A stretch of DNA of 64,000 bases from Blasia pusilla (taxonomy: Eukaryota). The notes beneath the pieces are model-generated. The model had not been told where the DNA came from. It searched no databases and saw only the letters and a list, made by a program, of their open reading frames with translations. Position numbers and translations under genes: made by a program. The first letter of the stretch is position 1. Every line of letters begins with the position of its first letter. Shown here piece after piece: positions 14,901 to 64,000 of the stretch. Location: assembly GCA_050084515.1 (NCBI GenBank), contig CM114271.1:24304001-24368000 (forward strand), read 5' to 3'.

Positions 14901-15232
14901 ATGACTTTGATTCTAGCAGAATCCATTGGTATCATGGACGCCACAATCCGAACACCTCTTACTTTCCTACTCCCGTCCTTCACCCATTCTCGCCGCAACT
15001 CCGCCTGCCTACATTCATGCGGACGGTTGGCCCCACTCCTCCCGAAAAATGGCGACGCCAATATTCCTACACTAGCGTAGCATTTCTGAGCGGGCGACCA
15101 TCTTGCCGAAGGTCCCAAGGAGCTGAGAATCGTCACTGACGAAGCTGACGCAGAGGACGTCGTAGCTCCACAACCATTCCCCAAACCAGTGCAAGAAACA
15201 CCGGTCAAGCTCGGCCTCACCCGGACATACAT
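8938..15232 (-). CDS. FtsZ1: Plastid division protein FtsZ1, about 457 aa with N-terminal transit peptide, 6 exons
   Basis: Exons 15232-14843 (Ser/Ala-rich transit peptide, then [19 protein letters not shown]), 13017-12918 ([14 protein letters not shown]), 12566-12337 ([12 protein letters not shown] tubulin signature), 9991-9824, 9621-9388 (LVNVDFADV), 9189-8938. All introns are GT-AG and the 1374 nt are in frame. It lacks the FtsZ2 C-terminal IPxFL core, consistent with FtsZ1. The start codon is inferred. Confidence 0.95.
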
Positions 15233-15648
15233 TCTGATGTGCAGAATGTATGTCGAGGCACACCTCACACGAAAAACCTCACCGCCGAGCTCGTGAGCAA
15301 GCTCTCTTCTCCGAAACACAATCCACTACCTAATTGCTCTCCTGACCACAGACCGAAAAAAATGCAACCAACAAAAAAGCGTTTCCAACACCGCCAAAAT
15401 CTAGGCTAGGATGTGCTCGACCTTCCTCCCGCGGTCACGAAACGAGAAGAGCCAGTTCCGCTCCTCGCACTGTTGTAGCTCCCGTGACAAGACGAAGCGA
15501 CGGATGGTACCCTGTTTGCACGGGACGGTGACGCTGTGCCCGCAACCACATACGCAGATTTGCCACGCATTAATAGAGAAAAGGAAAAGAAAGCGACCAC
15601 ATACGTACACTAAGGAAAAATAGGCAAAATTGAACGGGTTAGATGGGT

Positions 15649-34276: not shown

Positions 34277-36973
34277 TTATCTGGACTGATCAGAGGAACC
34301 AAGGATGAGATCCATCGGAGTGGATGCAGGGTCAAGCTCCAAAGCCCCACTAGGAACACCGAGTGTATCATCTTTGTACATTTTCTCGGAGATAACACAG
34401 TGTGAAAATCTTGGCAGTTCCGAAGGTCGGAACAGCTTGGTGGATGCAGGGCCTTCTTGCTTATGAAAGAGAGTCTTGAAACCCTTTACCTTGACTAGCT
34501 TCACCGTTTTCACACCCTTCTCTTCAGAAAAGTCACTGAGAACTTCCACCATTTCATATGCGTAAGTATGACCCTCTCCTTTTGACTTTGGAATTTGTTT
34601 AGGGCCCACCATACGCTCCAGGTCCCAATCTCTGTAGATGGCCCACACCTCCGACTTCCTTGGGTAGATTTTAATTGATCCTTTGCCCGCCTTGTCAAGC
34701 ACCATGTGAGAGAAAATATTGATCTGCTCAGAAATTATGGACTTCCCTATCTTAAACTCCCCACAAGTAATGGAAAGGCCAGTTTCATTCATCCACGCAC
34801 TGCAATCTTCTGTGGCATTCGTGGGCTCAAGCCAACTCAGATTCACTTTGAAGGGTGACAAAGACACCCGAGAGATGCGCCCATAAAACCTGGGCATCCC
34901 ATCCTGATCATCGTATATTGCCCAAATCTGCCCTGCTATTATATCAGACTCTGTACGTCTTGCATCAAAGTCATGGAAGTCAGGATCCGGCACATCTATC
35001 TGCTCTTCATCATCAGAAAATGATGAAGACGCAGCAGGACTCGAGACTCTTTGCTGAGGCTCCGGCTCCACTTCAGTCCCGTTATCCTTGTCAGCCTGTT
35101 GAGGGTCGGCCAAAGATGTTTGCTTCGCTGAATCCAACGATTTACTTCTCGTCCTGAGGGTCCTTGGGGACTTGCTCGGGCTCTTCTCACGTCTTGTCTC
35201 TTCAGCCTTGAAACATATTTTTTCGTCTTCTTCACCTGCAGGGTTCTTCGGCTTCTCCTCCTTGGGAGAGGAATCTACCTTTTGAGATGATCTCCCTGTC
35301 CTCGACTTGCTACCCCCCTTGGAGTTATCCTCTCTCAAACTATCCTCGTGCCTCCGTGAACTTTCCTCTGGCGTGTAAGCATCTGTCTGTGGTACCTGAC
35401 CTTCTCTGTTGGGCTCCTCTTCCACCCCGCTACTTGCCAGTCTGTGGCCCTTCTCTCCCAATGCTCTCATCCCTTCTCCGTTGATCCCGCTGTGCCACTT
35501 CTCGCCCAGAGCAATGGATTTACCTTTCTCAACTCTCCCACCATTCTCACATTGTTGCGAGTCATTCTTCTCCTCCAAACGATCTCTGCCACTGTTCTCA
35601 CTATCCGCAGCTCCCTCCGTTTTGGTCCGCTTGGCTGAAGGGAAATCTTCCAGATCCGAGTCACTGACATCGACTTTGTAAGTAGAAACATTCCTCTTCG
35701 CTCGAGACGATCGTCGCCGTGGCATTTCAGTAGCGATGGGCTCATCCTGCGGCAAGTCCTCAGACAATTTGAGCTCCTCCTCGTCGATCTCCTCCTCTTC
35801 GTCGACCTCACTGCCCCGTTTCTTCCGCTTTAGCCTCCTCGAAGGCTTGGCCTCCGTCTTTCGCTTACATTCCGCCTCTTCCCTCTCCTTCCTCTTAGCC
35901 ATCAGGCGCTCCATAGCCTCCTTCAGACGTCCTGTCTCACGTTGCTTCCTCTGCTCCTTTCGACGATCTTCTGCCTCCTTCCTTCGCTGCTCCTTCTCCT
36001 TTCTCTTCGTCTCTTTCTCAGCTTCTACTCTGTCCCGCTTCACCTTCTGAAATGTTTGCTGCACTACACCCGCGGCGACATTATTCGGTGGCACAGCAGA
36101 GGATGCAGCCGCTGCAGCAGCTGCCACTTTGCTTGCAGCTGCGGCCGCAGCTGCGGCCGGCGAGAAGACATTAGCAGGAGAATTTGTTGATTGTTGGACG
36201 TAGGAACTTGGAAAAGCTCCCAGACTCCCATTCGCAAAACCGTTTACGCCCACCCCATTGAATCCACCCATCTTGGCAAAATTGAAGTCTTGTTGCCGTT
36301 GGGCTTCGGCATAAGGGGCCCACGCATATGATCCATTGGCAGAGTTGTTTTGAATGTCACGAGCTTTAAACACTTCTTTGCACTTGTGGCACTGAAGCTG
36401 GTGATTCTCGTAGGTTCGCAAATACTGATACTGCATTTTGCAGCAAGGACACGAAGTCCAGAAGGTTGAGACAGGTGGAGGTGAGGGGTGAGTGGCGGAA
36501 GCCCCATGATACGATGTCGGGAAGGAGACATTCGCCTCTGCAGACACGACTCGAGCTTGGGACACCTTGATCTTTAGTCCCCTTCGCATGTCATGCAAAT
36601 GCCTCTTCGTCTTATCTGCAAGAATGCCCCATGCTTCGCCTAAAAGCTTGAATGCTGCTTCGGCACCGACAGCTTTGTTCTTGTCGGGATGCAGGAGCAA
36701 CGCCAGCTTCCTGTACTGCTTCTTGATCGTGGCATCATCAGCCCCAGGTTCTACTTGCAATATTCCATACCAATCCATTTCAGTGCCTCCTACCTTGACT
36801 TGGGCAACCGAGTGAACCTCGAGGACGGGCAACATCTGAGACAGCCCTTCAAGACCTGGAAAGAGTTGCTGCGCTTTAAGAACAAACTTCTTTGCTCCTG
36901 CAAAATCCTGCATTGCATACTTCTTCTCCGCGATATCCCTTGCTCTGAGTGCTTCATCTCTGTTGCACTCCAT
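34277..36973 (-). CDS. DnaJ-domain protein with zinc ribbon and C-terminal DUF3444, 898 aa
   Basis: Single ORF: MECNRDEALRARDIAEKK N-terminus; J-domain with LALLLHPDKN; FWTSCPCC...CHKC zinc ribbon; charged linker; PDPDFHDFD...GQIWAIYDDQDGMPRFY...ELDPAS (DUF3444). Confidence 0.95.
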   Translation of the reverse strand: MECNRDEALRARDIAEKKYAMQDFAGAKKFVLKAQQLFPGLEGLSQMLPVLEVHSVAQVKVGGTEMDWYGILQVEPGADDATIKKQYRKLALLLHPDKNKAVGAEAAFKLLGEAWGILADKTKRHLHDMRRGLKIKVSQARVVSAEANVSFPTSYHGASATHPSPPPVSTFWTSCPCCKMQYQYLRTYENHQLQCHKCKEVFKARDIQNNSANGSYAWAPYAEAQRQQDFNFAKMGGFNGVGVNGFANGSLGAFPSSYVQQSTNSPANVFSPAAAAAAAASKVAAAAAAASSAVPPNNVAAGVVQQTFQKVKRDRVEAEKETKRKEKEQRRKEAEDRRKEQRKQRETGRLKEAMERLMAKRKEREEAECKRKTEAKPSRRLKRKKRGSEVDEEEEIDEEELKLSEDLPQDEPIATEMPRRRSSRAKRNVSTYKVDVSDSDLEDFPSAKRTKTEGAADSENSGRDRLEEKNDSQQCENGGRVEKGKSIALGEKWHSGINGEGMRALGEKGHRLASSGVEEEPNREGQVPQTDAYTPEESSRRHEDSLREDNSKGGSKSRTGRSSQKVDSSPKEEKPKNPAGEEDEKICFKAEETRREKSPSKSPRTLRTRSKSLDSAKQTSLADPQQADKDNGTEVEPEPQQRVSSPAASSSFSDDEEQIDVPDPDFHDFDARRTESDIIAGQIWAIYDDQDGMPRFYGRISRVSLSPFKVNLSWLEPTNATEDCSAWMNETGLSITCGEFKIGKSIISEQINIFSHMVLDKAGKGSIKIYPRKSEVWAIYRDWDLERMVGPKQIPKSKGEGHTYAYEMVEVLSDFSEEKGVKTVKLVKVKGFKTLFHKQEGPASTKLFRPSELPRFSHCVISEKMYKDDTLGVPSGALELDPASTPMDLILGSSDQSR

Positions 36974-38621
36974 AGTTCTACACCTACAAAAATGTTTCCC
37001 TGCGTGGAAGCTCCTGTTCCCGACAACACGATCAGTAAAGCCTCTAGAATGATATTCTGTCGGACACAGGAACTCGGCTCCAATCTAAAGTAGGTACTGT
37101 TCCAACTCTGTGTGGCCTTCACTCCCGATGAAGTACAACTACGGTTGTCCTAAGAGCTTCTACCGGTCGCCGCTTCATCCAGCGTCACTCGGTCATATCA
37201 GCAAAGATTCTCTTCCCAGCACCTTCACGAACCATTGCGATCAGACGAAGGGTGAGACAAACGACGTCATAAACCCTAGAAACAAGCGCTCAAGATTACA
37301 ACGCGGGGATTGAAACTAGACAAACGGAACACCATAGGTTGCAACAAACACACTTGGACAAGAGAAAACTGTCAAATCTGAAAGAAACAATCGACAATGT
37401 CCTTCAGCTTGCTAGACAAAAGCCCCGGACCAGAAAGAGGCCGGTTGGTTCCAGAGTTCAACCAACCTGTCCAATTCGCAGAGTGTTTGGTACGGATTAC
37501 GGATTGGGCCTCATGACCCAAAGGCCCTGCTTCCACAATGGTTCCAGAACCCTAAAACTCCGCTTCATTTTCCTTACCACCGACAGTTCATTGCAGTTCT
37601 TGAAGCTCGAGTGTGATTGTGAACACCCTGGACACTACTTCACCATGCGTGCTCTCCCCCATTCTTGGCCCGCGTCAACTTGGCAAACGATAGAAACTGT
37701 GACTGATATCTTCGTCGAGGAAACCCGCGACCAATTACGCTTCAAATTAGCAAGGTTGACTACTCTCTCGAATTGCAACCACATGCCACCTGTTCGACAG
37801 GTACCGCACTTATATGCTCCTAACTGAAACAACCCGAAGTATCGACACCCACAAACGAAGGACCAACCTCAGCAACCAAGGCTTGGAGAAAACGAGAGGG
37901 AAATGGCAAGCCTAAATATCTCGATAGGAAACGCAAACGACCACGGGTAGCCAGGAAACGGAGATGGACATTATAACTTGAGGAGGAATACAATGCCCGG
38001 CTGAAGGGCAAATTGACAACGAATAGTAGAGATCTTCTTCCTGCAACCAATGAATGCGACAGTCGTGACCCAACCCGGAAAATGCGACGGCCTTCCTAAC
38101 ATGGATCGTTTGCCACTACACAAACTTGGAAATTTTTGAGGAATCCGACATAAGTGTAGCCAAACCAACTTTCCTATAGATCTTTCGCCAATAGAACGGC
38201 ACCGGGAACTCGCAATTTCCCCCCAACTCGAGCACTGCCAATGCTAGGGTTCGCGCGATACTTGCTTAAAATGTACTCCGCTTCAACCCCTTCCAGCCCC
38301 GCGGGAAACAAATGGACGAGACCTGCCCTCTCGAAAGAAGCCCGATCGCGACATGCGGCGGAATCGGGGCCCCCAAATAGGATGCGTGCCGGTGGCAGCC
38401 CAGGGTCACACACACACACACAACGCACGCAGAGGTCTCCGAGGTCCCAGGCAGCCACGAACGTCAGGGGCAGCAGCAGCACGGCACACCAACACGGATC
38501 TGCAGGACAGCATTCGTCGCTTCTCTCCCCTCCTGCCCCCCGTTCCTCGCTCCTCATTTGCCCAGAAGCGCAGCCTCACAGCTCCATTTCCTCCTATTCA
38601 CTGCCCTCCCTCTCTCGTTCC

Positions 38622-38680
38622 CTCGCTCGCTCGCTCGCTCCGTCCGTCCGTCCGTCCGTCCGTCCGTCCGTCCGTCCGTC
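38622..38680. repeat. (CTCG)n/(CGTC)n tetranucleotide repeat in the GC-rich 5' region of the DnaJ gene
   Basis: ctcgctcgctcg followed by about 10 cgtc units. Confidence 0.9.
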
Positions 38681-39166
38681 CCTCCCTCTCTCTCCGCCCC
38701 GACCTGCAGCCTGCTTGGTCCTCTGGAGGCTCGCTCTCTCAAACGAGAGCGGGAGATACAGACCGCGATGGCGCAAGGCACTGCTCGCCGTGGGCCAAGC
38801 ATGTCCTGCCCGTTCGCCACACTGCCCGCCATTCACGCTCGAGATATGGTCCTTTCTCCCGTCTGCCCTGCCCCGATTCACCCATGCATAGCAATGATAT
38901 CCGAATACGCATCATCATCAGCACCATCATACATGCATGCATGCGTGGCACCCCATGTTCGATATTCTCTCTCGCTTTCGCGCATCGATAAGCTCCTTGC
39001 TTTTTCACACTAATTTTGAGATCAAGTACTGTTTTGTACTTTCTCCTTGGGCGAATCGAGAGCCTAATCACTTAATGAGCATGTAATGCTGTTATCGACC
39101 AGCGTTACATGCTAATGTGGATTGTGCCCAAAGAGTTAACAAAAATGCGGCCTATATTAATAAGCA

Positions 39167-41499: not shown

Positions 41500-44400
41500 C
41501 GTGACTCCTCTGCATTCGTTCCATTTTCGGTTATGTCACAAAGGCCATTAAAGCTTCCTCTCTATATACAGTACTTGCCCCAACCAATGACACTCTCCGC
41601 ACTTGCAAAACTAGCTCGGCCTGCCCCAAAAATCCTGAATGATTTATTATATCATCGGTTGAAAAATCAAATCCTTCTCCTACCCTTCTAGACCTAGCTG
41701 ATTTTTGCATAACTACTCTCCATCTTGGGTTTTCTTCATCATCCGTATAGAACACTTGCTCTAGTTGACTTGAGAGACAACTGGCTCATGATCTATAGGT
41801 ACCAACTTCCTAAAGTTGGCCAAAAGTAGACCATTATTGCCAAAGGCCATATTTGCATCATGAGAACCACAATTTGAGAAAACCCATTTTCCTATCATGA
41901 GTACCACGAGATTCTCTAATTTCCCATAGTCCGATACTAAGATATATGTCAAAGTTTCCATGTAAGGATATTGACAAGCTTGATCTAGACCATTTGAACT
42001 TTCTGCCAAGAAAATAGATGCAATACCTGAATCATATGTACTGCAGGAACTGCCCACATCCACCCTGTAGTGATTTCCATATGCTCTCATCTTCTTATAT
42101 GAAAGACATGTTCGAGATGGAGGCACACTAAGTTGTCTTGATAAATCAACTATTTCCTTACCATCAGCAATCAATTCTCTTATCTTAAAACGTATCCATT
42201 CAGGAAATGGGATGTCACACACCATAGAATCTTTATATTGTCTACACAAAAAACAAACCAAAGGCCACATATTTGATAATCACTTCTAAAATGGTTTCCT
42301 CACTCGAATTTAATTTTACAAACTGAAAGAATACAAGAACTACTATCACAAAAATACTTACTTAATCCAAGGTGTGAAGCATTATGTATTCTCCAACACA
42401 TACTGATGCACTACATCAATGAGCTCAACTCTCAGTTGGATTTTTGAGCTAGCACCTTCCAAGATTTTACCAATCGTGCCTTCCTCCTCGGAGGCATCCC
42501 ATACTCTGGTACTTATGACATTGTAGTCTTACATATACTCTGTTATAAACCCAAGTACCTCGTCCATAAAGTATCCTTTCAGCCAAACATGCTTCAGGTT
42601 GAGCACGAGAACGCACATATGCTTTCAACACATCCAAATATCTCGATAGGGTTCATCCATCGACATGAAACAGGACCACATGTATCTAGTTCCTATACCA
42701 AGTGGACCATAAGGTGAGTCATTACATCAAAGATGAAGGGGAAATTGGATCTCCATCAGGCATAAGGTTTGTGCTACATATTCTTTAAAGGAAAATAAAT
42801 CTCTAGGATCCCAAGTCTTAACAAAAAGATGTCGAAAGACTCTTGATATATGCATGATAGTCATACTCATTGGAGCACTCATAAGATTCCGTAAACAATA
42901 GGGCATTAGTTGCTGCATGAAAATATGAAGATCGTGGGACTTCAAGCAACCTATCTTTTACCTTAAGATATGTTTTTGTAAGGCACCAACATACCCACTC
43001 GGGACTTCTAAGGCTTGAACCCTTGCCATGAATATTCTTGCCTCATCTGATGTCAATACGTAGTCTGCCTTGGGGTTCAACTTAACTCCTATTCTACTAG
43101 GATGAGGTTGGAGCCATAAATGTGGCCTAATCCCTCTAACTTCCATATCAACCCTAACCTGGGCGGAATCTATTTTATTGAGTCGAAAAATGGTTTTCAA
43201 GGTATTTTCGACCACATTTTTTTTCGCAATGCATCACAACGAGTGCGTGGCGAATCAACAAGTCTTGAAAAATGAACTAGTATTTTTTAAGGTTGCACTC
43301 ATAGTATAAAAGAAATGTATGAACGAATATAAATATTTTGATAGCTATATTGCAAAGACGTGGCCCATTGTATCTCACCTTCCAATAAGGCAAGTCAAAT
43401 AATATGGTCCTTCGTAGCCACTCCATATATTTTATATGGATTTGGGAGGGGCTAGTCACCCCTCCTTTGCTTGGGTTTTGTACCCTCATCATACTCCCAC
43501 TTCAATTCAGCCCATGGTAATACATCAAAGCTTGGTACTCGAGTTGGTGCTATACGATATTCAATCTTGCGATTGAAATGAACTTCCATTCAACTTCTAT
43601 ATGGATGGTTCCTCTCCACACAGCGTCGATGACCTTGAAATATGGGCTTATATAAGGACTTAGAGTAATACGAGTCTAGTAACGGTCCATAAAGTGAACA
43701 AGCAAGCTTTCCTTTCGTGGCTTGACCATAAACTACACCCAATCCCGGATAGACACTGAGTGTCCATATGATCATGGCTCTGAAAGTGAAATCTTTATTA
43801 CGAAACTGACTTCTACTATCATAAGCCAAAACACCCTTCCATAATATTCCTAACTCTTCTACAAGGGGAGCTAGGTAGACATCCAAGTTTGTAGATGTAA
43901 TTGACTCCTTACCAAGAATTATAAGAGCTAGCTGAAGGAAGAACTTCTTGGTACAAAGCCAAGATGGGAGATTATAATTGATCAAAACCACTGGCCAAGT
44001 TGACCAAACACTATTTTTTTCACCAAATAGATTCACCCCATCTAATGCTAATCCAAGCCGACAATTACCAGGCTTAAGACAAAAATCTGGCCACAACTCA
44101 TCTATTTTCCTCCATTGTTTCGAATCCCCTGTATGCCTCACCAATCCATCTCCACTCTTATTATTGGATGTCCATAACATAAACTCAGCAATACTCTTGT
44201 ATCTATACATCCGTTTTGGCCCAGGAATAGTTGGAAAGTGTCAAAGAACTTTTATTGCAATCTTTGACTTCCCAACTTCCTTGAACCGTTTTTCACGGCT
44301 CTTGAAACATTCATTCAAGTCGTTGTGCAATCCTGGGAAGAGCATACATCCACTTGGACATGCATGTATGTGAACATAGTTCAATCCCAACTTTATAATG

Positions 44401-45137
44401 AGCTTCTTGGATGCATAGTGATTTTTTGGCACTATCTTGTTGAGAGGTAAGACTTGAACCGCCAAAAATCTTAAAAGCTCATCTACAACTATGTTTGGGA
44501 TACTATGTGCACCACATATGTTCAAAAATAACATTGTGAATGCTAGTTTACATGCTTCTTGGAATGCATCACAACTGGCATTCCAATCATCCTCACAATC
44601 CTATACTTCATCTTCACTTGCCCTACATTCAAGAGGAGCATCATCCTCATTATGCCTTGATGAAGAGTGTGGGTTGTTTGTGGTGGGCTCATTGTGTCCA
44701 TTGTCAAATTCATGGAATGCTTCATTTATCATCCTATGCATCTCTATGTCTTTATCAAACTTAGTGGATAAAGGAGGGGGGATATTGTCCTCATTAATTA
44801 GAGTTGGAGGTTGGAAATCCTCTTTAAACAAGTCTTGGTTGTTGGGTTGGGATGATTCCCTCTCAACATCCGAGGATTCATAGTCATTCATATTCTTGCA
44901 AATTTGATTTGGAGGATATCTTTTGTACAAAATGAGACGTTTTTCAACTACGTGCAAGAGACAGAATTTGATTCCTCTACACTTGTTATAAGGGCACCTA
45001 ATTTTCTTCAACTTGAGGATCCTAGCTGCCTCCTTCTCTCTTCGCCAAAGCTTCTCGTCATGGGTAGAAGTCCCTCTAGGAACATTTATGTTTGGCTTAT
45101 TTCCTTGAGAAATTATCCCACCTCTTGATGTCTCCAT
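41500..45137 (-). pseudogene. CACTA TnpD transposase pseudogene (Transposase_21, DUF4218, DUF4216)
   Basis: IHACPSGCMLF; RLGLALDGVNLFG...STWPVVLINYNLP; LFDLPYWK; KSHDLHIFMQQL; VFYTDDEENPRWRVV. Frameshifts and stops present; probable introns near 43260-43378 and 42240-42360. Confidence 0.92.
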
Positions 45138-46464
45138 TCTAGCTAGCTATCAACATTTGAATAGATTTAGTTGTTTTGTTTCAGCTACTATACATTCACT
45201 TCTGTTCTTAATGATTTCTCCATTGCCCCTTCTTTCTCTACCATGGACCACACATCTACTTTGTTATTCTTAACTTTCACCTCCTCATATAATGAGGAGG
45301 TGAAAGTTAAGAATGACAAAGTAGATGTGTGGCCTCCTTCACTACCTCCCACATGTATAACTTGGCTGTAAGTTTTGTGGATACACTGTTAATCTCTTGT
45401 TAACATTAAGATAATATATGCTGTCATAGAACTTTCTTGTCTTAAAATCAAAGTCAAAGATGGAAGTCGTCACACATTTGACTCATTTTTTTGGTGACCA
45501 CTCGGTGAATTTATTTCTCACTCCCTCTTCTTCCTTCCAAGCCTTGTTATTCATTCTTCTCTTCTCTTTAAAATCACGGTTCCACCAGTAAGCTAGAGCT
45601 TCACTTGCTTCCTCCTCACTTAGAAAATCCTCGACATAGTAATGAGTGCTCTCCTCTTAAATCCTGTTTAAATCTACCTCTACCTTCTCAATATTTTGTT
45701 ACTCTATCTCCTCTTTGCGAGTTACATATCGAACATGTGGTTTGTCGGACTCATCCTTTCAAGTAGTGTATCTTGGTTCAACAGAGACCATATACCCTCA
45801 CCACCTATAAGTCAATCCACAAATGACATAATTACATAATCATAAAGTTACGCACATACTTTCAAAAATAAAGTCTAGAGCATCTCCACAAGAGCCTAAC
45901 CATCTTGGAGTTGCTTGTTAGCAAAGATCAAACTCTCTTAATTAAGATCAACTTCTACAAGCAACCATACCAATGACTTGATGCTTAGCCAGTTCTATAT
46001 ATCTTGAACATAAATGAAGCACTCATATATCACACAGAAGGAAGAGAGACATGGGCTTGCCACAAGCACAACTAATCAACCATTTGAGAAAAAAGTAGTG
46101 GAGATTGTAGAAGTTTTCCATAATCAGGCAAACCCATCCAGATCTCCTGGGCCATGGAATTCTGAAGCAAAAAGATTTGTGAGGGTAGACCTACACCCAA
46201 AAATACATGTGCGAGCCAAGGTCAATCCCATTGGTACAACTCAATTTTAGATCACTAGAATGGATCAATCCCGTTCCATGGAAGATAATCCTATTTGAAA
46301 TTATTACTGCAGATTGGGTCGCTAATTGCTATGACATAAGGAGCTCGAACAAAGTGGTACATCGTCTAGAGGGAAGGACTATGAGATGAGGGGATTCAAT
46401 TGAGAGAGCACTGTGGATCAAAGGGAGAGGGGCTTGGTAGTGGGTATTCTACAAGACATTGAGC

Positions 46465-53299: not shown

Positions 53300-54880
53300 T
53301 TGATAATTCCATTTAGCTATATATTCTCTTTTTTTGCCTCCCTAGATACAATGTAATTTAACTCTAAATGGATTGCAATACACACTTCTAACTTACAACA
53401 CCACCTATTAATGTGACCACATAACACGCACCGGGTGTCTTGAATCCAAGCTTGGACTAGAGGGGACTTAAGACTCTACAAAATAACAATCCAAAAAGAC
53501 TATCATATTTCTTCTTCCCACATTTTCTCCATGAATATAATACCATCTTCCATAATCTTGATCGAACATACAAAAAATCCATTGCGTATCCTCATAATAC
53601 CCTTACCCTCAATCTATCATAAAAAGTGATGATAAAATCATAACATATGAGATGTGTAATTAATATGGTAGATACCCTTAAATACACTAAAGATCTCACC
53701 ACACTTATCCAATATCATATGCTTTGACATGATACAATATTGAAGAGAGCTTGAAAAAGTCATGCAAAAGTGCTCACTAGTTTTGTATTCTCCATGCCAA
53801 CATATCCTCAATATAATTCCTTTGAGAGATCCATGATGTATTCTTCTTCCTATCCCTAGAAATCGATACATTGAAAACCATTTGTACGTACCTAAATCTT
53901 CCATATCAAACTCTTAGCTAAGTGGCATCAATAGTCTTTTACTGTAAACAAATTTACTACATAGTTATATTTCAAAACTTTATAACATCCACATGATATA
54001 AGAAAATGAATTGGATTTCTTCAACTTATTGAAGTTTATCTGATAGTCATAATTGCTCTAGATATAGCTTTACTAGGTTATAAAAGAATCAAAACTTTTG
54101 AGCCACTGTCTAATAATTGTTTTTAGGCCATAGGTAACTTCATCAATAAGCACAACAATATTTTATTTTCCTTGTATCTTGAAACCTTATGCTCAATCCA
54201 TATAGATTTCCACCTCTGACTCTTAATGCAAGAAAAGGGCACTTTTGACGTCTAAATTCTCTATCTCCAAATTTTCGAATATATTGATGACTAAAAATTC
54301 AGGAATAGAAGTAATATTTACCATGAGAGAGAATATATTATTGAAGTCCTTGTATTAATTTTGTGTCTACCACTTTATGATTTGCTTTCTACCTAAAAAC
54401 TTGTGATTAATCATGTAGACCATCATATTTCTCATATTCAATTTAACTACAGATACAATTTTCCTTAATGGTTAGTTAGATTTTATTTTTCTGGTGTACG
54501 AGTACTTGTAACAAGCTCAACTACTCAAATGACATAAAAACGATTTAAGGCCATGGTTAGCACAATAAAAGCCCTTGCAAAATTATGATATGTGCACACA
54601 AATCCTTATAGCAGCAACTTAGATAGACAATATCCTTCCTCTCATAGACCATATTTGTTACATTATGTATGTCATGGGCTAAGAAATATAGAGTGTGTCT
54701 TCCATCTAGCATATGTTATTTTTGAAATCCATAATCAACTAATTCGTCATGAAATTTGGAAATTCAAAGAACATAACTCCGTTCCTCTAAATTCATAATT
54801 AAATGTTTGACTATGTCACAATATGTGTTTTGGATTTTTAGAAGAATGAATGAAGGTTTTATAATTAAATTTCTCATATT
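53300..54880 (-). mobile_element. Highly degenerate Copia RT/RNase H remnant
   Basis: Minus-strand fragments MEDLG...RFLG, LDVKSA and YVVTLIGGVV; many stops. Confidence 0.7.
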
Positions 54881-57800
54881 TAAAAAAATATCATGATTTA
54901 CTTGGATATTTTTTCATTTGGTTTACTTCACATTAAAATGTAAGAACTATGTCACAAAAAAATGAAAACAATAATTTTCTCTATATAGAAAAGCTCAATT
55001 TTTAAAAAACTTTTAAAAGCTTGTATATCTTTTTCGTCATGCTTGGTAATGCTTAATACTTTAAAAAATATTTTCCATGTCAGAATAATCATTTTTTAAA
55101 ATTTAGGTTATAAAATAAAATTTGTTGTCTTGCATGATAAGGATTATCAAACCACTAGCTATATTACTATCATTGAAGGCTTAAAATGATTAAAAATATA
55201 GAGGAATGCCAATTCATCTTCTTATATTTTAAAAATAGAATAATATAGATTCTGAAAATAATTTAAATTAATATGATTTTCTCGTGAGGAATTGAAAATT
55301 ATTTATGGTAGACTACTTTATTACAATCTCTATTAGTATTTTGATAACCACATCACAATTCCTAGATATTGATCGAATTAGTTAAGGTCAATTATGAGGC
55401 ATGCATAAGGTTGAATTTTCTTTAAGTAAAGGGAAGGAAAATAAATAATTTTTAGTAAGTTTTCTTAATCATTATTTTCCAAAGTGTTACAATTTAGATT
55501 TAGAATGGAAAGAGAGATGGTAAATTTAAATAAGAGAGGGATGACAGAAGGCCATTAATTTTCAACAAGGGATTGCTTTATAAGGATTTTATTCAATAAT
55601 GTTGATTTTTTAATGAGGCATGGAGATACAAAGTTCGAGAATATTGGATGTTGAATGTCCATCTCTTTATTTTACTTGTATCTTTAATCCAAACTGTCCC
55701 ACTATATAAAGGCATCTGAGTTTTTTAATCACAACCACTACTCGGCATAATATCCAGAAATCGTATTTGGCTGCTTATAAACTTGATTGATGATTTCTAT
55801 AGCCCATCAATCCCCATCCACTGTGAAAAAAACAAAAAAAAATCCATCATCATCTCACAAGGACTATATTTTGCAACGTATGAGTAGATACACGGCGTTA
55901 CTAAAATAAAATATTGCAAAAATCATAAATTGTATCCACGTACCAAATATTGAATTTGGATAAAATACATTTTATTTTTCCATAATTATGAACCAAGTTT
56001 GTGGTTGTAGACAATGTTTTTCTTAGAGACATATTTCGCAGGTCGTAAAGAAGTCATAATACAATGGTAAAATAAGTAGATAATAATGGGTTAGTTTGCA
56101 TGATGCTCATAGATTTAGATTAATGTCATATTTAAGTACTATGTAATTTCTGTAAAACATCTTCACAAAAAAACCTTACAATGGATCTATGTCATTATAA
56201 GCATAATTAGTGATCAAGATGGTTTCCATGGATGATGCCGAACCTCATGAAAATTGATGGACACAAATGATTATCTTTACATGTAGTTATGAGATGACAT
56301 TCCTCATTAAAATATTTACTAAATTTTCTGTTCTCTCAATCAAATAAAGGGTTTCAATAGAATCTCACGAATTTTCTGAAAATATTTGTCATGCGCATAC
56401 ACGTCGCTTTACAACATACGTCGTTATTACTAACTGTAAATATGTAAACACGAGATATCATCATAATTCATGGAATGTGAATACTTAGAAAATCATGTAC
56501 TGAAATTATCTAATTAAATCAAGATCACTCCAATCTCTCACATAATCTCCATCCCTCTCTCATATCAAATCAAACCTACTCTCCTATCCAGTGAGAGGCT
56601 TGGGTTACTCACAAGACAAGGAGGACCATAACTTTATTGCCTCATGCGAAGAGGTTCAACAAAGAGAGAATGAATTCAAAGCTCTGTCTCTCTTTGGGTA
56701 TATTCCTTCCCTCATCTTGTGTGCAACCTGACGGAAACCGACGGATTGCATTGCAGAATAATTCTCACTTTGTCTTGGAGATTTCCAAAATTGGCTCGGA
56801 GGGGAACATGAGGCAACATTGGATCAAAGATTGCGATAGAGTCAAGAAGGTGCTTATAACGCATCTGGTGGAGTACAAAGGATTTATGGGACATGAGTTA
56901 GTGGATGTGATCCTCGCGGAGGGTGCGCAGATCAAGCAGAAGACTTGGGCGAATACATACATCTCCCAAGATGCAGCACTCATGATTCTATGCTGGTCGA
57001 AAATTCAGGCAGCCAAGAAAAGTTCCACACATGAGTTGGAGGAAAAATGTTTCGCCATCGGAGTGAGCAAAGTTCATTTAGGCTGATGTGTCAACAGCCA
57101 GCAAATACACTGCGAGTTAGATGCAGCAATACATTGCCATGCTCAACCTAGATCTCGGCCAGGACTTCGACAAGGAATTGAAGGCGATCATTAAACGTCG
57201 GAGGAAGAGGAACAAAGACCCACAGGGTCGAATAGGGGTTGCAAGTACGTTGCTAACGCTGTCTTGAATAGAGTGTAAAGTGGGTTGAGTTGGTAAACTC
57301 ATATTCGACGCTACAAGAGGAGAATCAATTAGAGAGGTTGGACGGAAGAAAACTTTATGAAACCCATTATGTTTTTGTATAATTCCAATTCTTGAATAAA
57401 AAATTGACAAAAGCTAGATCCAGAGGGAATCAGATGTGAGGAGGTCTCTAATGTATGTTGGTGTTAAGTAAACATTTAAATTGGTACGTGGTTTGGAAGT
57501 AGTACATAGGTCACAAATGTAGAAGTGAACAAAAAGTGGTATGATGGAGTAGAAGTGATTGAAGGATTGTAAATAGGATGGAAGCAATAGTTTAAGAGAG
57601 TAATACAACTTTGATAAGGCTGAGAGCAAATGATAGTTGGTACTCTCAGGTTTGGTCTGTTTGGGTTTCTTGGAGTGAGGACGATAAGCAACAATTCTTG
57701 ACTCTTGGAGTGGTTATGTAATATGGTGAAATTATGATAGGAAGATTAGGGTGTGTTGTGTTGTTTTCAACTGATAATGTGTCATGAATATCATAGGTAT

Positions 57801-59044
57801 AAGAGTTTTAGGGAAGCTTCTGAAAGAGCTGTTATGTAGGTCTTTGTGTCTGTAGTATTTAAATCAGCTTGCACTAAGTGTTGCAGATATTACAGAGCAG
57901 AGAGATGAGTGAGCTTCTATCTAACTATGACTTCGTTCTAAGTTAGAACGAAGTCACAGTTAGATACCCGCATCCACAAGTTTTCATTTTCTCGAATCTC
58001 CAAATTTAGGCGAATTTGACTTACGAAAATCAGTCTCAAGGGGACTCAGGCACACAAACAAATAGCACATCATCCTCCCGGGGTATCAGACCCTACAATC
58101 TCTCATTGGCTTAGAGAATGGTCTTTCTTGGACGTAGTGCGTCTGCTTGGGAAGGTGATGATCCATAGTTTTCAAGCGAAGCTCAAAAAGATTGAACCAG
58201 TTCTAGAGGAGGCCAATCCAGAGGTTGCTAAGGATAACGAGTTGTGGCTAGATTACATCCGGTATAAGCCGGAAAAACACCCATGCTTCCAAACAATGTT
58301 CAAGAATCATATCCTCCCTCAGACGGATCTCGACAAGGAAATTGACGCCAAAAAGTGGGATTTCGCTAAGAAGAAGCGGGATCTTCAAGAACAACCGGCC
58401 GAGACATCCCAACAAAGAGCTGCCCAACGCATGGTATACAGATACCTGATCTACAGTGTGAATGCAAGGACATGGCAAAAATACCCAGCAGCATGCAAGC
58501 TTTGGGCTTCTCGCATGATGGAGAAGCATTCTCCATGTACGACATGGAGATGGGGTAGGATATGTCCGAGTGGGAAGTGTTGAATTTTCCAATCTACTTG
58601 GACTTCAACGACCGTGTACAAGTGATTGATAAGAACTTGCGCATTGTGTATGATGCAGTCGTAGCTGGCACGGACGACACCCCAAACATCATTAAGGTTG
58701 GAGAATATTTTGAAGGAGATGCGAAGGAACAAGCCATCAAGACAACTGAGTTGGTCTCCAAGGTAGTGACCGCCAAGGATGAATAGACTACGGGCTTGAA
58801 AGCCAAGGCAAAGGGGTCAAGGCATTCAGAGGCGTAATATTATAGACGAGAGGGGCAGACAAGGAAGCCCAACAAGAAAAAAATCATGTGGATTCTAAAG
58901 TAACTGACACACCAACAAGCAGGCAGCAAACTCGCGAGAAGCGAAAGTAGGAGCCCCCAGGATCTACCACATAATTCAGTAAGGATTTGGAATACACTCC
59001 TTCATATTAGGTAGGCGTAGGGATTGTATGAGCAGGATCAGGAA

Positions 59045-59395
59045 AAAACAAGCTCTGTAGGGATTGTATGAGCACCAGGAAAAAACCCCTGTCATTGAGA
59101 TATGTCTCTGCAAAAGAAAACAAGAGGACGATTTGGTCATAAGTGAGAGCGACATTCCAATCTGGGACACTGTGTGACGGATCGTCATTCCACAACGGAT
59201 ATCCAGAAGGAAAATATGCAATCAGTAGGTCCACAACAACCTCCTTAGCTACCCCATGGACCGTCCATAGGACATGCCCATTTTGAAGAAGTTTTCTCCC
59301 AAGCACGGCCCACTTCTCGATTGCAGCTATCGACTCTTGAGTTGAAAATTTGTGCAATTCATCAAGCAGGGAAGTTTGGTGGAGCAGGACAATGA
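59045..59395 (-). pseudogene. N4/N6 DNA methyltransferase-like N-terminal (catalytic motif IV) exon, locally inverted
   Basis: VVVDLLIAYFPSG resembles VDLIxTDPPY, followed by LFSFAETYLNDRGFFL (compare LkpgG motif VI). Bounded by ~55-bp inverted repeats. Confidence 0.55.
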
Positions 59396-59759
59396 TCCTG
59401 CTCATACAATCCCTACGCCTACCTAATATGAAGGAGTGTATTCCAAATAGGGCGTAGGGATTGTATGTACGCCTACATAGTTTTGAAATATAACTATGTA
59501 GTAAATTTTTTTACAGTTTTTTCCTGGTGCTCATACAATCCCTACAATTCCTGGCGCTTCCTGGTTTTTTCCTGAATGGAGGGAGCGAAGACAAGCTCTT
59601 CAACCTTGAATGCATGAAGATGTCTCTCAAGTGTAGGACGGCGTAGTCATGGGTGGTAAAAAATGAATACCCACTTACATTTGCTTCAAATAAAATCCAA
59701 GTATGTTCAAAATTACTTTATTCCATTTTTTGTTTATGTTGTAGACCATAGGTTTACAT

Positions 59760-60380
59760 ATGCAACCATTCAGATTCCGAAGGGTTGCGAGAATCATGTA
59801 GAGATATTTAGTGCAACCCTTTCCCCATAATGAGCAACCCGTCGGAACCCGGTGGGTTGCTCATAGAGTTGTGACTTTGCTAATGAGCAACCTGTCGGGT
59901 TCTGACGACCTGCTTCTCAGTTATAACTCTGATAAGGAAAAAAGGAATAAGTACAACCTCTTAGGATCCGACGGGTTTCCCGGGAATTTTTTGACAAAGT
60001 GGTAGAACTACTATAATTTTGATTTGGTTCATGAGCAACCCGTCGGAACCCGGCGAGTTGCTCATAGAGTTGTGACTTTGCTGATGATGCAACCCGTTGG
60101 AACCCGACGGGTTGCATCTCAACTAGATTTTTGGATAAGGAAAAAAGCAACGAGTGTTACCTGTCGGGATCCGACGGCTTGCATGGGGGCATTTTGACAA
60201 AGCTGTAGAGTTACAAGAATTACTACTTTGTTTATGAGCAACCCGTCGGGTTTCGACAGGATTCTTCTTAGGTAGATGTTTGGAAAATGAAAAAAGCAAT
60301 GAGTGCAACCCGTCGGGATCTGATGGGTTGCACATATGATTTTTAGGAAGTTGTAGAGCAACCCGTTTTTTTCCGACATG
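59760..60380. repeat. Array of GC-rich palindromes, block 1
   Basis: About 10 variants of gcaacccgtcgg-aac-ccgacgggttgc, e.g. 59831-59863, 60032-60063, 60087-60118, 60304-60332. Confidence 0.9.
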
Positions 60381-60489
60381 TAGGCTTGTTCCACCTTAAA
60401 GCTAACATCATTTTGCTCATGCCTTGTGGACACATAGAGCACTCCTATGTCTACTATTTTCTGAGACTTGAGCAGATGTTTCAGGTATT

Positions 60490-60944
60490 TCACATATAGG
60501 ATCCTGTCCATCCATGCTCGGATGGGGCCACATTGGATAGCCTTTACAATTTCCCCCCCGGAAGTCTTAATGATTGAAGGCACGCCTTTACTTGGAGGAA
60601 GTGAGAAGTCACATGCTCTGATGCAGACCCTCATTGAGCTATGCTCGAGGCCGAGGAATTTGGTCTTGGACTTGGTAGGTTTATCAAGGGCGAGTATTAG
60701 AGGTGCATGGCAGAAAGGCAGAAACATTCTCTGCATTGAGGGAAGAAAGGAACTTTTTTACCTTTGTAAGAAGGCAAAGGCGGGTTACGAAAGGCAGGTG
60801 GGAGGCTTAAACTCGCCTCCAAAGCCAATTGCTCCAGCAGCAGGCCCATTGGTAGTGACGACATCTTCCTTGCTTGTAATTCAAAAAACCGAGAGAGCAA
60901 GGTTGACAGTCATTTTGGAGGAGCTCTCAGATGATGACGAGTGA
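60490..60944 (+). pseudogene. N4/N6 DNA methyltransferase-like C-terminal (SAM-binding) exon
   Basis: EKSHALMQTLIELCSRPRNLVLDLVGLSRASIRGAWQKGRNILCIE aligns by eye to the N6_N4_Mtase consensus KPxxLxxxLIxxxSxPGDxVLDPFxGSGxTxxAAxxxGRxxIGxE. Confidence 0.7.
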
Positions 60945-61444
60945 GATCAAATGATTTCTCGGTTCAATTGATTAAAACATTTTGGAGTAGGGATTTGGTG
61001 GTTTCAAGCGGCAGAGTACATATCGATAGTGGATGGGAGTTACCTTGCAGAGCATACAAGATTTTTGTCGGGGAAGGCGTTGGGACTCTCCAAATCACAC
61101 ATAGGACCAATATGGTGTAACTAGGGAGGGGGGCAAGGCTATCAACTTCCCCCACATTCTCAATCCCCATCTACAATCGGCCAAATGAGCCATTAGTTTT
61201 CGAAGACATTCCTTTTGTATAGGAACTGAGGAGAATTAGGAGTAAATTTGTAGATGACAAGGGTGAAGAAATCATAGACTAGAGTTGATGGATTCTGTGA
61301 GCAAATATAATGTGCTGAGTTTCCCTCGACGTAATAAAGGACTTCCAATTTCTTGAGGATATTAATGTTCTTGAAGTGTCTTCTAAGTAGTGTTGCTTTT
61401 GTGTCTGGGTTGCGATTTCTCTATGTTGGACGGTCTTTATTAAC

Positions 61445-62330
61445 CAACCCGTCGGATTAAACAGGGTTTCAAACCAAAGACCATGCTTGCAACCTGTCGG
61501 ATTCTAAAAGATTGTAAGATTTACCACCTCCGGGATGCTCACATTTTTAAACCTCTTTCTCAGCGAGCCAGTTAGGAAACCTATCGGATTCCGACAGGTT
61601 GTAAGATTTACAGCCTCACGGATGCTGCATTTTTTTAAAAGCTCTTTCTCAATGAGCCAGTCAGGAAACATGTCGAATTCTGACAGGTTGCATGTCACGT
61701 TGATTGGCTTCTACACTTTTCCAATTGAATGTCCTCCATCCCGTCGGATTCTGACACGTTCTCTACTTGATTGATTTTTCTTTTCCTGTGCCACCACAAT
61801 CCTTCTAGGCAGGCTTCTTCACCTTCGCCTTGTTTCCTTGTTTTCTTCAAACCATTCCTCTCTAAGACTTTATTTTCTGAGACCTATCGCATTCTGACAT
61901 GTTGGATGATTGAGGCTGGGAGGCTTTGTATTTGATAGGTCGCATGAATTACATACAATCCCTACAAATTGAAGGACTCTGACAACTTACAAGCGGAAAA
62001 ACCTATTGGATTTTGACGGATAGCATTTTTTAAGGAATGGAAGCTGGCTGCGTGGCCAACAGGTTTTCCTGACATTCTTCTTAGATTCAACCTTCGTCTA
62101 TCATGCAACCTGTCGGAATCCGACAGGTTGCATGAAGAGAGGAAGATAGGAGAGAGGTCTACAAGGAAGGACTAAGAGGAAAATGGAAGCAATCAGCATG
62201 ACTACATGTCGCATTCTGACCTGTTGCATGGAAGGATGATGCCTTAACTTCATTTCATTCTCTCCATTTGTTTTTTCACTAGCATTTCTAAACTCATGAC
62301 GTCTACCAACATGTCGGATTCCGACATGAT
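61445..62330. repeat. Array of GC-rich palindromes, block 2
   Basis: About 10 variants, e.g. tcatgcaacctgtcgg-aat-ccgacaggttgcatga (62101-62135) and catgtcgg-att-ccgacatg (62310-62328). Confidence 0.9.
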
Positions 62331-62673
62331 GAAAGGTTCATTGCCTTTATTTTCCTCGTAGTCCTTCTATGTGGGCCTTAAGGATCGATTTCTTTACCTC
62401 AAACATATGTGTTTAAACAAACTTCCCAAATGCCCATCAGCATCATAGACACTTCATGGACCCATTCCTCAGCCAACATAGACGATTGATTTGTGGCCTC
62501 CCAGTAGTTTGAGTCATAGTTGGAAATATTGGAACCCTTCAGTTCCTACCAAACTCACCAAATTTGCTATCATCTTTGTCAATCTCTAGGACTCTCGTGG
62601 GAGAAAGTAAATCCCATATGTCAAGAAAGTATTGAAAGTATTTGCATATAAGAGTGATTAAGCTATATATAGA

Positions 62674-62677
<4 letters not shown>

Positions 62678-62713
<36 letters not shown>
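62678..62713. repeat. (TA)n microsatellite
   Basis: Directly visible. Confidence 0.95.
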
Positions 62714-62715
<2 letters not shown>

Positions 62716-63129
62716 ACGGATTAAGTGGTCTCCTTGTGTCTAGTTTTAGATTCAAGCGTGGAAAAACGAGGTTAGTTTATGACCCAATCTGATCCACTTG
62801 TTACTCTCTTATAAAGATTTTTAGCATTTCAAAGAGAAAAACTTATAAAGAAACTAATAAAATTTTAGAAGAGAGGAGGCGGATTCTCTCTTCTCTTTTT
62901 AAGAGAGACTCTCATCTCTTCCTCTCTTCCTCTCCTATACCATCAAACTAAAAAACTCTACCGTGTGCCAACCATGTGGCACTCTCTGCACATTCAAGTC
63001 CTCATTCAATCAACCTCATGTCTCATCATATTGATGGGTTAAGGCTCAACCCATTCACATTTTAGTTTGGGTGTCTTGGGCAATGGGCCACTTGAAAATC
63101 CTACTCCTTTAATAGCAATATTCACATAA

Positions 63130-64000
63130 CAAGCCTCTATGTCAACTTGTCGAACTCCATCAACCATCCGAATGTCTGATGGTTGGTGACAAGTGCAAAT
63201 AGACTACCCAACAAGTAGCATATGAAATGCATGTATCATACTCTTGACTACAACTAAGCACGTGCAGTCTTCCTTATACAAGGTCTATCTTGCCTCCACA
63301 ATATTTTTTGAGTGGCTAGCATATGCATATGTCAATCTAAACTCCTTTCCTAACCAATTGGTAAAATATTGCTCCTAGTCCCAACGTGCTCTAGTCGATA
63401 GACAACCGGATCAACTTCCCTTTGATAGATTTCCTCAAAATAGGCATCGACACCAACATGTCTTTCAGCTATTGATCATATTCCCACTACCACTCTGGTC
63501 CATTCTTGCTAGGAAGATAAAATATGTGTATTCATGTCATCCATGTACGTAACATCTCCTCATCATGCCAACAAGCTCCCAATGCATGCGTTTGATTTGG
63601 AGATGGCTTATGACTGATCTCATATACATCTTGGTTGAGTCTAGCTTCTATGTTGATTTATCATATGGAAATAATAGTCTCGCAATGTGAAAGCTCATAT
63701 AGCAAGCTTCCCAATAAGGTTGTTGGACTCCATCAACCAATCACATGGTTGGTAATTTGTAATGAGAGTGAAGGGATTTCTAAACAAGTAAGATTTGAGA
63801 TGTGCCATGTTTTGCACTATAATTAGGCATACTCTCTCATGTGAGTTATACTCCATATTCATAGGCTTGTTTGAATGTGTAGCATATAGGAGTATAAACT
63901 CTCTATCCTTGCCATCATATTGAGTGAGTTCCGCTCCAAGTCCCAACATACTCCGATCCATGAGCAATTAGAAAGGAACCCCCCAAAATAATCTCCTCAA
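63130..64000 (-). mobile_element. Degenerate Ty3/Gypsy pol (two RNase H fragments)
   Basis: 63695-63967 reads LGAELTQ...YATHSN...HLKSYLFRNPFTLITNYQP.DWLM; a second copy at ~63150-63300 reads LFALVTNHQTFGWLME. Confidence 0.8.

Follow-up and report, generated by a model that had tools for sequence, protein, structure and literature searches.

The stretch analysed here, 64,000 nucleotides of nuclear DNA from the plant Blasia pusilla (assembly GCA_050084515.1, contig CM114271.1, positions 24,304,001 to 24,368,000 of the forward strand) and hereafter called the window, carries near its right end a plus-strand open reading frame (ORF) that resembles part of a DNA methyltransferase (MTase). We favour, as the probable reading, that this locus holds a dead member of a repeat family associated with mobile DNA, and that what remains of its coding sequence is the subdomain with which a beta-class amino-MTase binds its cofactor, the glycine loop having already been lost. 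As judged by profile comparison, the only recognisable coding content of the locus is the C-terminal third of a PF01555-type fold, followed by a tail specific to the family. The family would comprise, as a rough figure, several dozen copies in this large plant genome. An earlier, sequence-only reading of the same DNA had gone further, and had proposed a spliced MTase gene of prokaryotic type, carried as cargo antisense to a Gypsy pol and able to mark element DNA with N4-methylcytosine (4mC) or N6-methyladenine (6mA).

A C-terminal segment homologous to PF01555 methyltransferases

Pfam comparison of the MTase-like ORF gave PF01555 (N6_N4_Mtase) at profile positions 165–220 of 221 (E 0.03 and 0.022; 14.7 and 15.1 bits), and the best NCBIfam match was the DNA methyltransferase PRK13699 (E 0.22). 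Used as a single sequence against the PDB, the ORF matched DpnA (E 0.07) and M.RsrI (E 0.13). Of its 30 nearest clusters in the ESM atlas, 28 contained PF01555 only and the remaining two lay in sets that also contain PF01555. A tblastn search against 50,697 phage records yielded a single match at E 1e-3, to a DNA MTase of Bacteroides phage BT-TP2; among the 30 matches listed, 26 are annotated methylases and four are unannotated records. The BT-TP2 protein is a true member of PF01555 (E 1.2e-30), and over 71 amino acids BLASTP finds it 35% identical to the window ORF (pairwise E 2e-10).

Searching 1.84 billion representative proteins with HMMER (phmmer) returned two proteins at E ≤ 0.001. The better match, P0001, was rejected as a tandem-repeat, low-complexity artefact that aligns only to the proline/alanine-rich tail of the ORF. 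The other, P0002 (E 1.4e-4, 40% identity), is the sole true relative; it is a singleton open frame of 147 amino acids encoded on a 13-kbp metagenome contig. It maps by tblastn onto 60549–60758 of the window (E 1e-10), and by itself it matches the same end of the PF01555 profile as the window ORF (E 1.8e-4, 22.0 bits). Both proteins also keep, outside the common core, a tail motif (PP...SSLLV) that does not belong to the MTase fold. A word-based protein search with P0002 at longer lengths gave no match.

Three alignments were used in the profile comparisons: the window ORF with P0002 (A1), a two-sequence profile of their common core (A2), and 16 bacterial and phage MTases (A3). Metagenome scans with A1 and A2 (in one of them, patterns came partly from a non-homologous stretch) and a viral scan brought no further relatives. 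Against the PDB, A2 matched DpnA at E 2.2e-4, and all four matches at E ≤ 1 were beta-class MTases. In hhalign, A2 aligned with template columns 169–221 of 238 of A3 (probability 93%, E 2.7e-7). Among 200 column shuffles the top probability was 3.5%, and the observed score of 44.8 stands 15 standard deviations above the shuffled scores (12.0 ± 2.1, maximum 19.7); the reversed alignment reached a probability of 0.4%. AlphaFold2, given the ORF with P0002, predicted helix-strand-helix-strand-helix over residues 45–112, an MTase-like layout at low confidence (predicted local distance difference test score, pLDDT, 43.9). Motif I lies about 70 residues from the stop codon, as the beta layout predicts.

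Profile comparison thus identifies this C-terminal segment as homologous to the PF01555 MTases and as covering their motif X/motif I subdomain, which binds S-adenosylmethionine (SAM). The sequence-only reading had recognised the same subdomain in EKS..LIELCSRPRNLVLDL..GRNILCIE; the string is present at 60600–60740 (+), and its assignment to a beta-class family is upheld by the hhalign result. Among all the stretches that the sequence-only reading had quoted, the core within this ORF is the only one demonstrably related to PF01555 by these comparisons.

The cofactor loop itself is degenerate. F179, G181 and G183 of the FxGxG motif are invariant in 16 of 16 MTases of A3, and the corresponding positions are V, L and R in the window ORF and S, S and S in P0002 (read by eye in A1); the SAM-binding FxGxG loop is therefore absent from both proteins, with both glycines and the phenylalanine replaced. 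Since the loss is common to the window copy and P0002, it is probably a property of the family and goes beyond the decay of this copy. Judged also by their common tail, the two descend from one ancestor of eukaryotic style in which the canonical cofactor loop was probably already lost. The common degenerate loop argues against a cargo gene that writes 4mC or 6mA.

Copy number, transcription and setting of the repeat

Four read runs of the same species, one of whole-genome shotgun (WGS) reads (X10) and three of RNA (X13, X14 and X15), were mapped on 54001–64000 at 85% likeness; X10 was sampled at about one in 100 reads, and depth is both columns summed. The region from 56.3 to 63.3 kbp is repeated DNA, in which the MTase-like part has a depth of about 12–18 against a baseline of 0.1–1 (Table 1), and the expectation that the locus has multicopy relatives is borne out by this depth. 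Across the upstream ORF region (56595–58786) the depth is uneven, from 2.5 to 448. Reads at least 99% like the window number 41 of the 9,926 mapped, which fits a single-copy depth below 1, and 97% of reads align only partially, so that the relatives are diverged and the estimate of several dozen copies is approximate. The consensus of the family also differs from this copy: at 60602 the T of the window is G in all 33 reads (S to R), and the family reads carry G at 59621 (43/43) and 59634 (33/34), unlike the window.

RNA reads from all three runs cover 60681–61348 at a depth of 1–5. They carry one common set of variants at 60713–60735 (13/13 reads in X13, 5/5 in X14 and 12/12 in X15; the set lies within 60698–60735), and no RNA read among the 939 mapped reaches 99% likeness to the window. 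The uniform variant set and the lack of any such read indicate that a paralogue is transcribed and that this copy is not detectably transcribed. Over the MTase-like ORF the first mates map to the minus strand, and over the Gypsy RNase H, itself encoded on the minus strand, they map to the plus strand; assuming dUTP-type libraries, the usual kind, this would fit sense transcription of both the MTase-like paralogue and the RNase H. The sequence-only reading had called this copy dead, with a degenerate FxGxG motif, and we agree: the loop reads V, L, R, and no catalytic half can be detected. This copy gave no RNA reads.

Two places in the upstream region have unusual read profiles. At 56592–56673, a core of about 35–80 nucleotides is extremely abundant genome-wide (about 3,000 WGS reads at 56648, where 2,794 of 3,076 have C in place of the G of the window); its transcripts give first mates on the plus strand, opposite to the MTase-like ORF, and it has no Rfam, tRNA or Pfam match. 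The bin 58343–58676 exceeds its neighbours in abundance about 10-fold, and at 58448–58527 most family reads skip about 64–80 nucleotides (for example, 39 reads join 58447 to 58528), so that either this copy has an extra segment inside the ORF 58020–58583 or the family has a deletion. A (TA)n microsatellite at 62662–62720 was skipped as a repeat in the read mapping.

The repeat is marked by a 12-nucleotide motif, GCAACCYGTCGG, which is found 18 times in the window, counting both strands, where 0.19 occurrences would be expected. All of them lie within 56723–62131, in three clusters (56723–56749, 59777–60316 and 61444–62131) and mostly as head-to-head hairpin pairs, and the two arrays listed in Table 1 bracket the MTase-like ORF. 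Short-motif arrays of this kind resemble the subterminal (TNPA-binding) repeats of CACTA-type DNA transposons, and the locus does show the short arrays in both orientations that mark the subterminal regions of a CACTA/En-Spm-like transposon. No GCAACCYGTCGG occurs near the CACTA transposase of the window (12 kbp away, on the other strand), our repeat searches found no CACTA terminal inverted repeats (TIRs) with a 3-bp target duplication, and 56001–61000 holds no transposase. Between 56.0–57.0 kbp and 61.0–64.0 kbp there is no linking pair of TIRs or long terminal repeats (LTRs), only the hairpin motif.

The proposal that the locus lies in transposon-rich repeated DNA of a plant genome stands, whereas its linkage to a Gypsy pol as antisense cargo is not supported. 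Read through with X at stops, 61001–64000 contains only RNase H fragments at 63349–63976 (−) and no integrase; no LTR pair was found (the window ends at 64000, so that a 5' LTR could lie beyond), and a bin at single-copy depth, 63353–63686, lies between the pol remnants and the MTase-like locus. Rfam and tRNA scans of 55500–64000 gave sub-threshold hairpin matches only, and no tRNA. A near-perfect palindrome of 49 nucleotides at 57918–57966 (24-nucleotide arms, 96%) has a sub-threshold miRNA-like Rfam score on both strands.

Profile searches recognise three gene or transposase features in the rest of the window, namely FtsZ, DnaJ/DUF3444 and a CACTA transposase, and the DnaJ/DUF3444 ORF looks like an intact host gene. 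At 38160–39013 (+), three overlapping open frames of 210–247 amino acids are of low complexity, rich in Pro, Ser and Arg, with PSVR repeats. No second copy of the MTase-like locus was found by blastn within the window.

Table 1. Features of the window and depth of WGS reads (run X10) over its right end; positions are counted from the first nucleotide of the window
Position	Strand	Feature	Detail
9310–15325	−	FtsZ gene exons	N-terminal GTPase start ~14660–15325; FtsZ_C 9310–9753
34277–37084	−	DnaJ + zinc beta-ribbon (zinc-ribbon) + DUF3444 ORF	Intronless; 935 aa stop to stop
41761–45146	−	CACTA/En-Spm-type transposase pieces	Transposase_21 at 43590–44240 (−), E 2.3e-50
56595–57086	+	Upstream ORF piece	
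57121–57267	+	Upstream ORF piece	
58020–58583	+	Upstream ORF piece	
58559–58786	+	Upstream ORF piece	
56723–56749		First GCAACCYGTCGG pair	
58985–59040 / 59393–59448		Perfect 56-nt inverted repeats	100% complementary; enclose a 352-nt segment with the minus-strand ORF
59039–59086 / 59516–59563		Nested second inverted repeat	83%; duplicates GFFL codons
59076–59396	−	Minus-strand piece VVDLLIAYFPSGY...YLNDRGFFL	Inside a 167-aa ORF, 59007–59510
59575–59700	+	Putative continuation exon NGGSEDKLFNL...NKIQ	In-frame TAG 59644–59646; GTATGT after 59700
59777–60316		GCAACCYGTCGG array	Inside the supposed intron; repeat families D1–D9
60465–60944	+	MTase-like ORF	Stop codon 60942–60944
60549–60944	+	Stretch conserved in P0002	From ISPPEVLMIEGTP to the SSLLV tail motif; phmmer, tblastn, A1
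60600–60773	+	MTase-like core	Residues 46–103 of the ORF; Pfam, BLASTP, hhalign, PDB; in order: motif X helix, strand beta1 (LVLDL), degenerate motif I loop (VGLSRAS), helix A, strand beta2 (ILCIEG)
61444–62346		GCAACCYGTCGG array	Downstream of the MTase-like ORF
63349–63474	−	Ty3/Gypsy-type pol remnant, weak second piece	E 0.0076
63674–63976	−	Ty3/Gypsy-type pol remnant, RT_RNaseH	Pfam E 3.6e-16
54001–56338		WGS depth, seven bins	0.10–1.07
56339–56672		WGS depth, peak	448
58009–58342		WGS depth	12.2
58343–58676		WGS depth, peak	133
58677–59010		WGS depth	17.1
59011–59344		WGS depth	12.0
59345–59678		WGS depth	17.2
59679–60012		WGS depth	17.3
60013–60346		WGS depth, peak (hairpin array)	78
60347–60680		WGS depth	12.9
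60681–61014		WGS depth	17.8
61015–61348		WGS depth, peak	194
63353–63686		WGS depth	0.92
63687–64000		WGS depth, peak (RNase H)	253

The proposed catalytic half and the inverted segment

In the sequence-only reading, motif IV of the enzyme was placed in the minus-strand piece VVDLLIAYFPSGY...YLNDRGFFL, followed by a continuation exon and, after an intron, by the C-terminal segment. The quoted peptide strings and the upstream ORFs are all present, at or near the positions given for them. The minus-strand ORF, however, has no Pfam or NCBIfam match at E ≤ 10, the piece itself finds nothing in the PDB and no usable atlas match, and word-based protein searches with the ORF, at longer and near lengths, gave no match. 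On a custom hidden Markov model (HMM) of 79 bacterial MTases, collected with the phage BT-TP2 protein as query, the three pieces joined with X at the breaks scored 1.7 bits, compared with 1.58 ± 0.31 when the first piece was shuffled and 3.2 for the last piece alone; hmmalign placed only the C-terminal part of the joined pieces on the model. A glocal alignment of the first two pieces with the N-terminal half of the profile gave z −0.46, 265 of 400 shuffles being as good, and of the 67,291 stop-free 12-mers that the window yields in six frames, the ungapped VVDLLIAYFPSG ranks 44th. With A3, hhalign gave the minus-strand piece a probability of 0.25% and aligned it elsewhere than motif IV; AlphaFold2 gave it a pLDDT of 44.2. 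Comparison with MTase profiles thus divided the proposal, the C-terminal segment being positive (sub-threshold in Pfam, 93% in hhalign) and the segment likened to motif IV negative. The assignment of motif IV has no support in these results, and the order 'IV before I', which depended on it, is not demonstrated.

The other parts of the proposed gene fared no better. The string NGGSEDKLFNL...NKIQ is present on the plus strand, but adds no score on the MTase profile and has no support as an MTase exon. No in-phase acceptor for the three-exon model was seen by eye, and P0002 matches only the last piece. A large N-terminal or ParB-like partner had been suggested upstream; Pfam searches of the ORF pieces in 56595–58786, singly or with frames read through, recognise no significant family there (the only matches, both weak and sub-threshold, are FtsL_2, E 0.16, and NepR, E 0.06), and the six frames of 56001–61000, read through with X at stops, likewise contain no significant Pfam family. 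In a scan of 109 stop-free pieces of at least 35 amino acids from both strands of 55000–62500, only the C-terminal ORF scores (71%, E 3.7e-5; runner-up 1.8%), which indicates that the locus holds the last third of an MTase fold only. No catalytic half (motifs IV–VIII, with (D/S)PP(Y/F) as motif IV) was detected within 5.5 kbp upstream or 1.5 kbp downstream, and no frame near the locus has a TSPPY or SPPY motif. With the SAM-loop glycines lost in both known members and no catalytic half detectable, the suggested marking of element DNA with 4mC or 6mA has no support. On the opposite strand of the MTase-like ORF, a 212-amino-acid open frame (60119–60757) crosses the hairpin array and has no family match, which shows that an open frame at this locus can be long without being coding.

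The description of the minus-strand piece as 'now inverted' is fair at the DNA level, as perfect 56-nucleotide inverted repeats enclose the segment. Both inverted pairs (Table 1) are built on an 18-nucleotide unit, GTAGGGATTGTATGAGCA, with five occurrences, only within 59017–59545. Thirty-one nucleotides, among them the FFL codons from the GFFL junction, occur once in each orientation (59056–59086 and 59516–59546; blastn, 100% identity). From its repeat structure, the arrangement fits a small foldback insertion, or one resembling a miniature inverted-repeat transposable element (MITE), followed by inversion. A 39-nucleotide stretch, 59479–59517, which belongs to the small insertion beside the inverted segment, recurs inverted at 53941–53979, 5.5 kbp upstream, with 97% identity, and this recurrence hints at a family of short MITE-like elements.

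Origin of the family, known systems and significance

The closest sequences to the window ORF are bacterial and phage MTases of PF01555 (DpnA-type 5HEK/5HFJ, M.RsrI 1EG2, CcrM-like enzymes and gp14 of BT-TP2), with 30–35% identity over 53–70 residues. Like the window ORF, these enzymes have the segment motif X–beta1–motif I loop–helix A–beta2 at the C-terminal end of the protein. In contrast, the window ORF lacks the phenylalanine and the glycines of FxGxG, has no detectable motif IV–VIII half, scores below the cut-off, and lies in plant repeated DNA with a eukaryote-specific tail common to P0002. The literature found describes two systems in which, as here, a eukaryotic genome encodes an N6_N4 MTase fold of prokaryotic type. 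MpDN4MT1a/b of Marchantia are 4mC writers of PF01555 type with proven activity, encoded by two tandem genes and having a TSPPY motif (bioRxiv 10.1101/2021.02.12.428880), and N4CMT of bdelloid rotifers is a PF01555-type 4mC writer with proven activity, encoded by an intact host gene as a single allelic pair (PMC8885841). Compared by description, these are host genes in one or two copies with the catalytic motif intact, whereas the window family is multicopy, with no detectable catalytic half and a degenerate SAM loop.

DNA MTase domains amplified with a mobile element are also known: a Dam-like MT domain in DIRS1/PAT retrotransposons (PMC5890265), and DNMTs in retrotransposons of dinoflagellates and charophytes (PMC6338049, in which DNA methylases encoded by transposable elements are stated to be absent from land plants). 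Those domains are fused in the pol polyprotein beside reverse transcriptase (RT)/RNase H or a tyrosine recombinase; here, no significant Pfam family lies on the same strand within 2.7 kbp. The MT of DIRS belongs to another Pfam family, PF05869. The DIRS1/PAT layout, with MT downstream of RT/RNase H and tyrosine recombinase, is not seen, as 56001–61000 has no RT, RNase H or recombinase in any frame. With CACTA/En-Spm elements and Pack-type capture, the locus has in common the short-motif arrays, direct and inverted, that flank the window ORF; it differs in that the unit has no CACTA termini or transposase. Full-text literature searches brought up no plant PF01555 member associated with transposable elements among the titles and abstract openings listed.

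According to the reading that we favour, the segment would descend from an MTase gene of prokaryote or virus type, which, whole or as a fragment, would have joined the mobile DNA repeat marked here by the hairpin-motif arrays; the repeat would then have amplified. This copy would now be without function, further broken by a small insertion and an inversion bounded by the 56-nucleotide repeats, and members of the family that are still open would most likely encode a non-catalytic remnant of the MTase fold, possibly a DNA-binding or structural module, and no writer of 4mC or 6mA. Two versions of this reading are compatible with the data. In one, favoured by the open frame of P0002 and the common tail, the gene is borne by the element and its intact members encode a protein of MTase fold that is non-catalytic; in the other, favoured by the lack of an upstream half and by the flanking motif arrays, a 3' gene fragment was captured. 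Several points weigh against the reading as a whole. The curated gathering cut-off of PF01555 is 26.7 bits, which neither the window ORF nor P0002 reaches, and the family is known from just these two sequences. Depth at 85% likeness, with 97% of the alignments partial, gives copy number only roughly, and no element termini (TIR, target-site duplication or LTR) were found, mobility being deduced only from copy number and context. The idea of an inverted exon agrees with the open frame of 167 amino acids on the minus strand and with the duplication at the GFFL junction, although the MTase identity of that frame is unsupported, and intact, functional full-length members may have a catalytic half too diverged for the profiles. 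Finally, P0002 is open over 147 amino acids and keeps the tail motif at only 40% identity, which points to long-term constraint at the protein level.

The last point bears also on an explanation that we hold to be unlikely, though worth serious consideration: that a DNA transposon (CACTA, MULE or a Helitron-like 'Pack' element) captured the 3' exon of an MTase-like gene, of the host or horizontally acquired, and amplified it without its ever being a working protein in the element. No part of the fold can be detected beyond its C-terminal third, the ORF stands between the GCAACCYGTCGG arrays in the layout of a non-autonomous element of about 2.6 kbp with subterminal repeats, read depth across the region is a mosaic, and the same window contains a CACTA transposase gene. 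However, neither TIRs nor target-site duplications were found, the open frame and non-MTase tail retained by P0002 suggest selection on a protein and no neutral junk, and the substitutions between the window and the family consensus (a handful of sites) include silent and conservative changes. The complete gene of the sequence-only reading, that is, a spliced beta-class MTase with an N-terminal partner, carried antisense in Ty3/Gypsy and with intact copies marking element DNA with 4mC or 6mA, seems to us improbable. It accounts for the real C-terminal homology, for the similar depth (12–18) of the pieces in 59011–61014, which may travel together, and for the spacing from VDLLIAYFPSGY through YLNDRGFFL to WVVKN, which by eye is collinear with the MTase consensus; with dUTP-type libraries, paralogues of the ORF would be transcribed in sense, and with this the opposite-strand reads over the Gypsy RNase H agree; and a Gypsy RNase H fragment does lie antisense 2.7 kbp away. 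It is contradicted by the failure of the motif IV piece in every test (Pfam, NCBIfam, PDB, atlas, custom HMM, glocal alignment, 12-mer rank and hhalign), by the loss of the SAM-loop glycines in both known members, by the lack of ParB or any other significant domain upstream, and by a pol reduced to RNase H remnants, with neither integrase nor LTR pair and with a single-copy-depth bin in between.

A pseudogene of an ordinary, non-mobile family of MTase-like host genes, lying among transposon debris, would explain the expressed paralogues, the conserved relative in another data set (P0002) and the missing element termini. We regard it as decidedly improbable: depth at 85% likeness is 20–50 times the flanking baseline and includes non-coding neighbours on both sides, high-copy hairpin-motif arrays are embedded in the unit, and the family is nearly absent from 1.84e9 predicted proteins, which is typical of unannotated repeats and atypical of host gene families. 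That the resemblance is due to chance, with nothing related to an MTase present, is scarcely credible. All single-sequence matches are below the curated thresholds and the AlphaFold pLDDT is 44, but independent methods converge on the same 55–70 residues and the same family, P0002 independently matches the same PF01555 positions, and the distance of the profile-profile score from its shuffles argues strongly against chance.

The observations themselves are modest and comprise a single dead fragment, a single distant relative, and read depths that point to several dozen copies. Taken together, the comparisons identify the locus as a genuine but fragmentary, and probably non-catalytic, relic of an MTase fold in a plant repeat; they give no evidence for a 4mC/6mA writer encoded by a transposable element. 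Eukaryotes very rarely have N6/N4 MTase folds of prokaryotic type, and the papers found describe only N4CMT of rotifers and DN4MT1 of Marchantia. We consider it rather unlikely, yet of interest, that B. pusilla harbours an expressed, transposon-amplified land-plant family built on the prokaryote-type beta-class amino-MTase fold, whose intact members would be an active 4mC/6mA writer or, more likely, a SAM-independent DNA-binding module acting on the hairpin-motif arrays of the element. If this is true, a plant family that arose from this fold, is multicopy and is transcribed in part would be a third, independent eukaryotic acquisition, and the first methylase-derived gene carried by a transposon of land plants, of which one review says that none exist (PMC6338049). 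It would also provide a test case for the reuse of an enzyme fold after the loss of cofactor binding.

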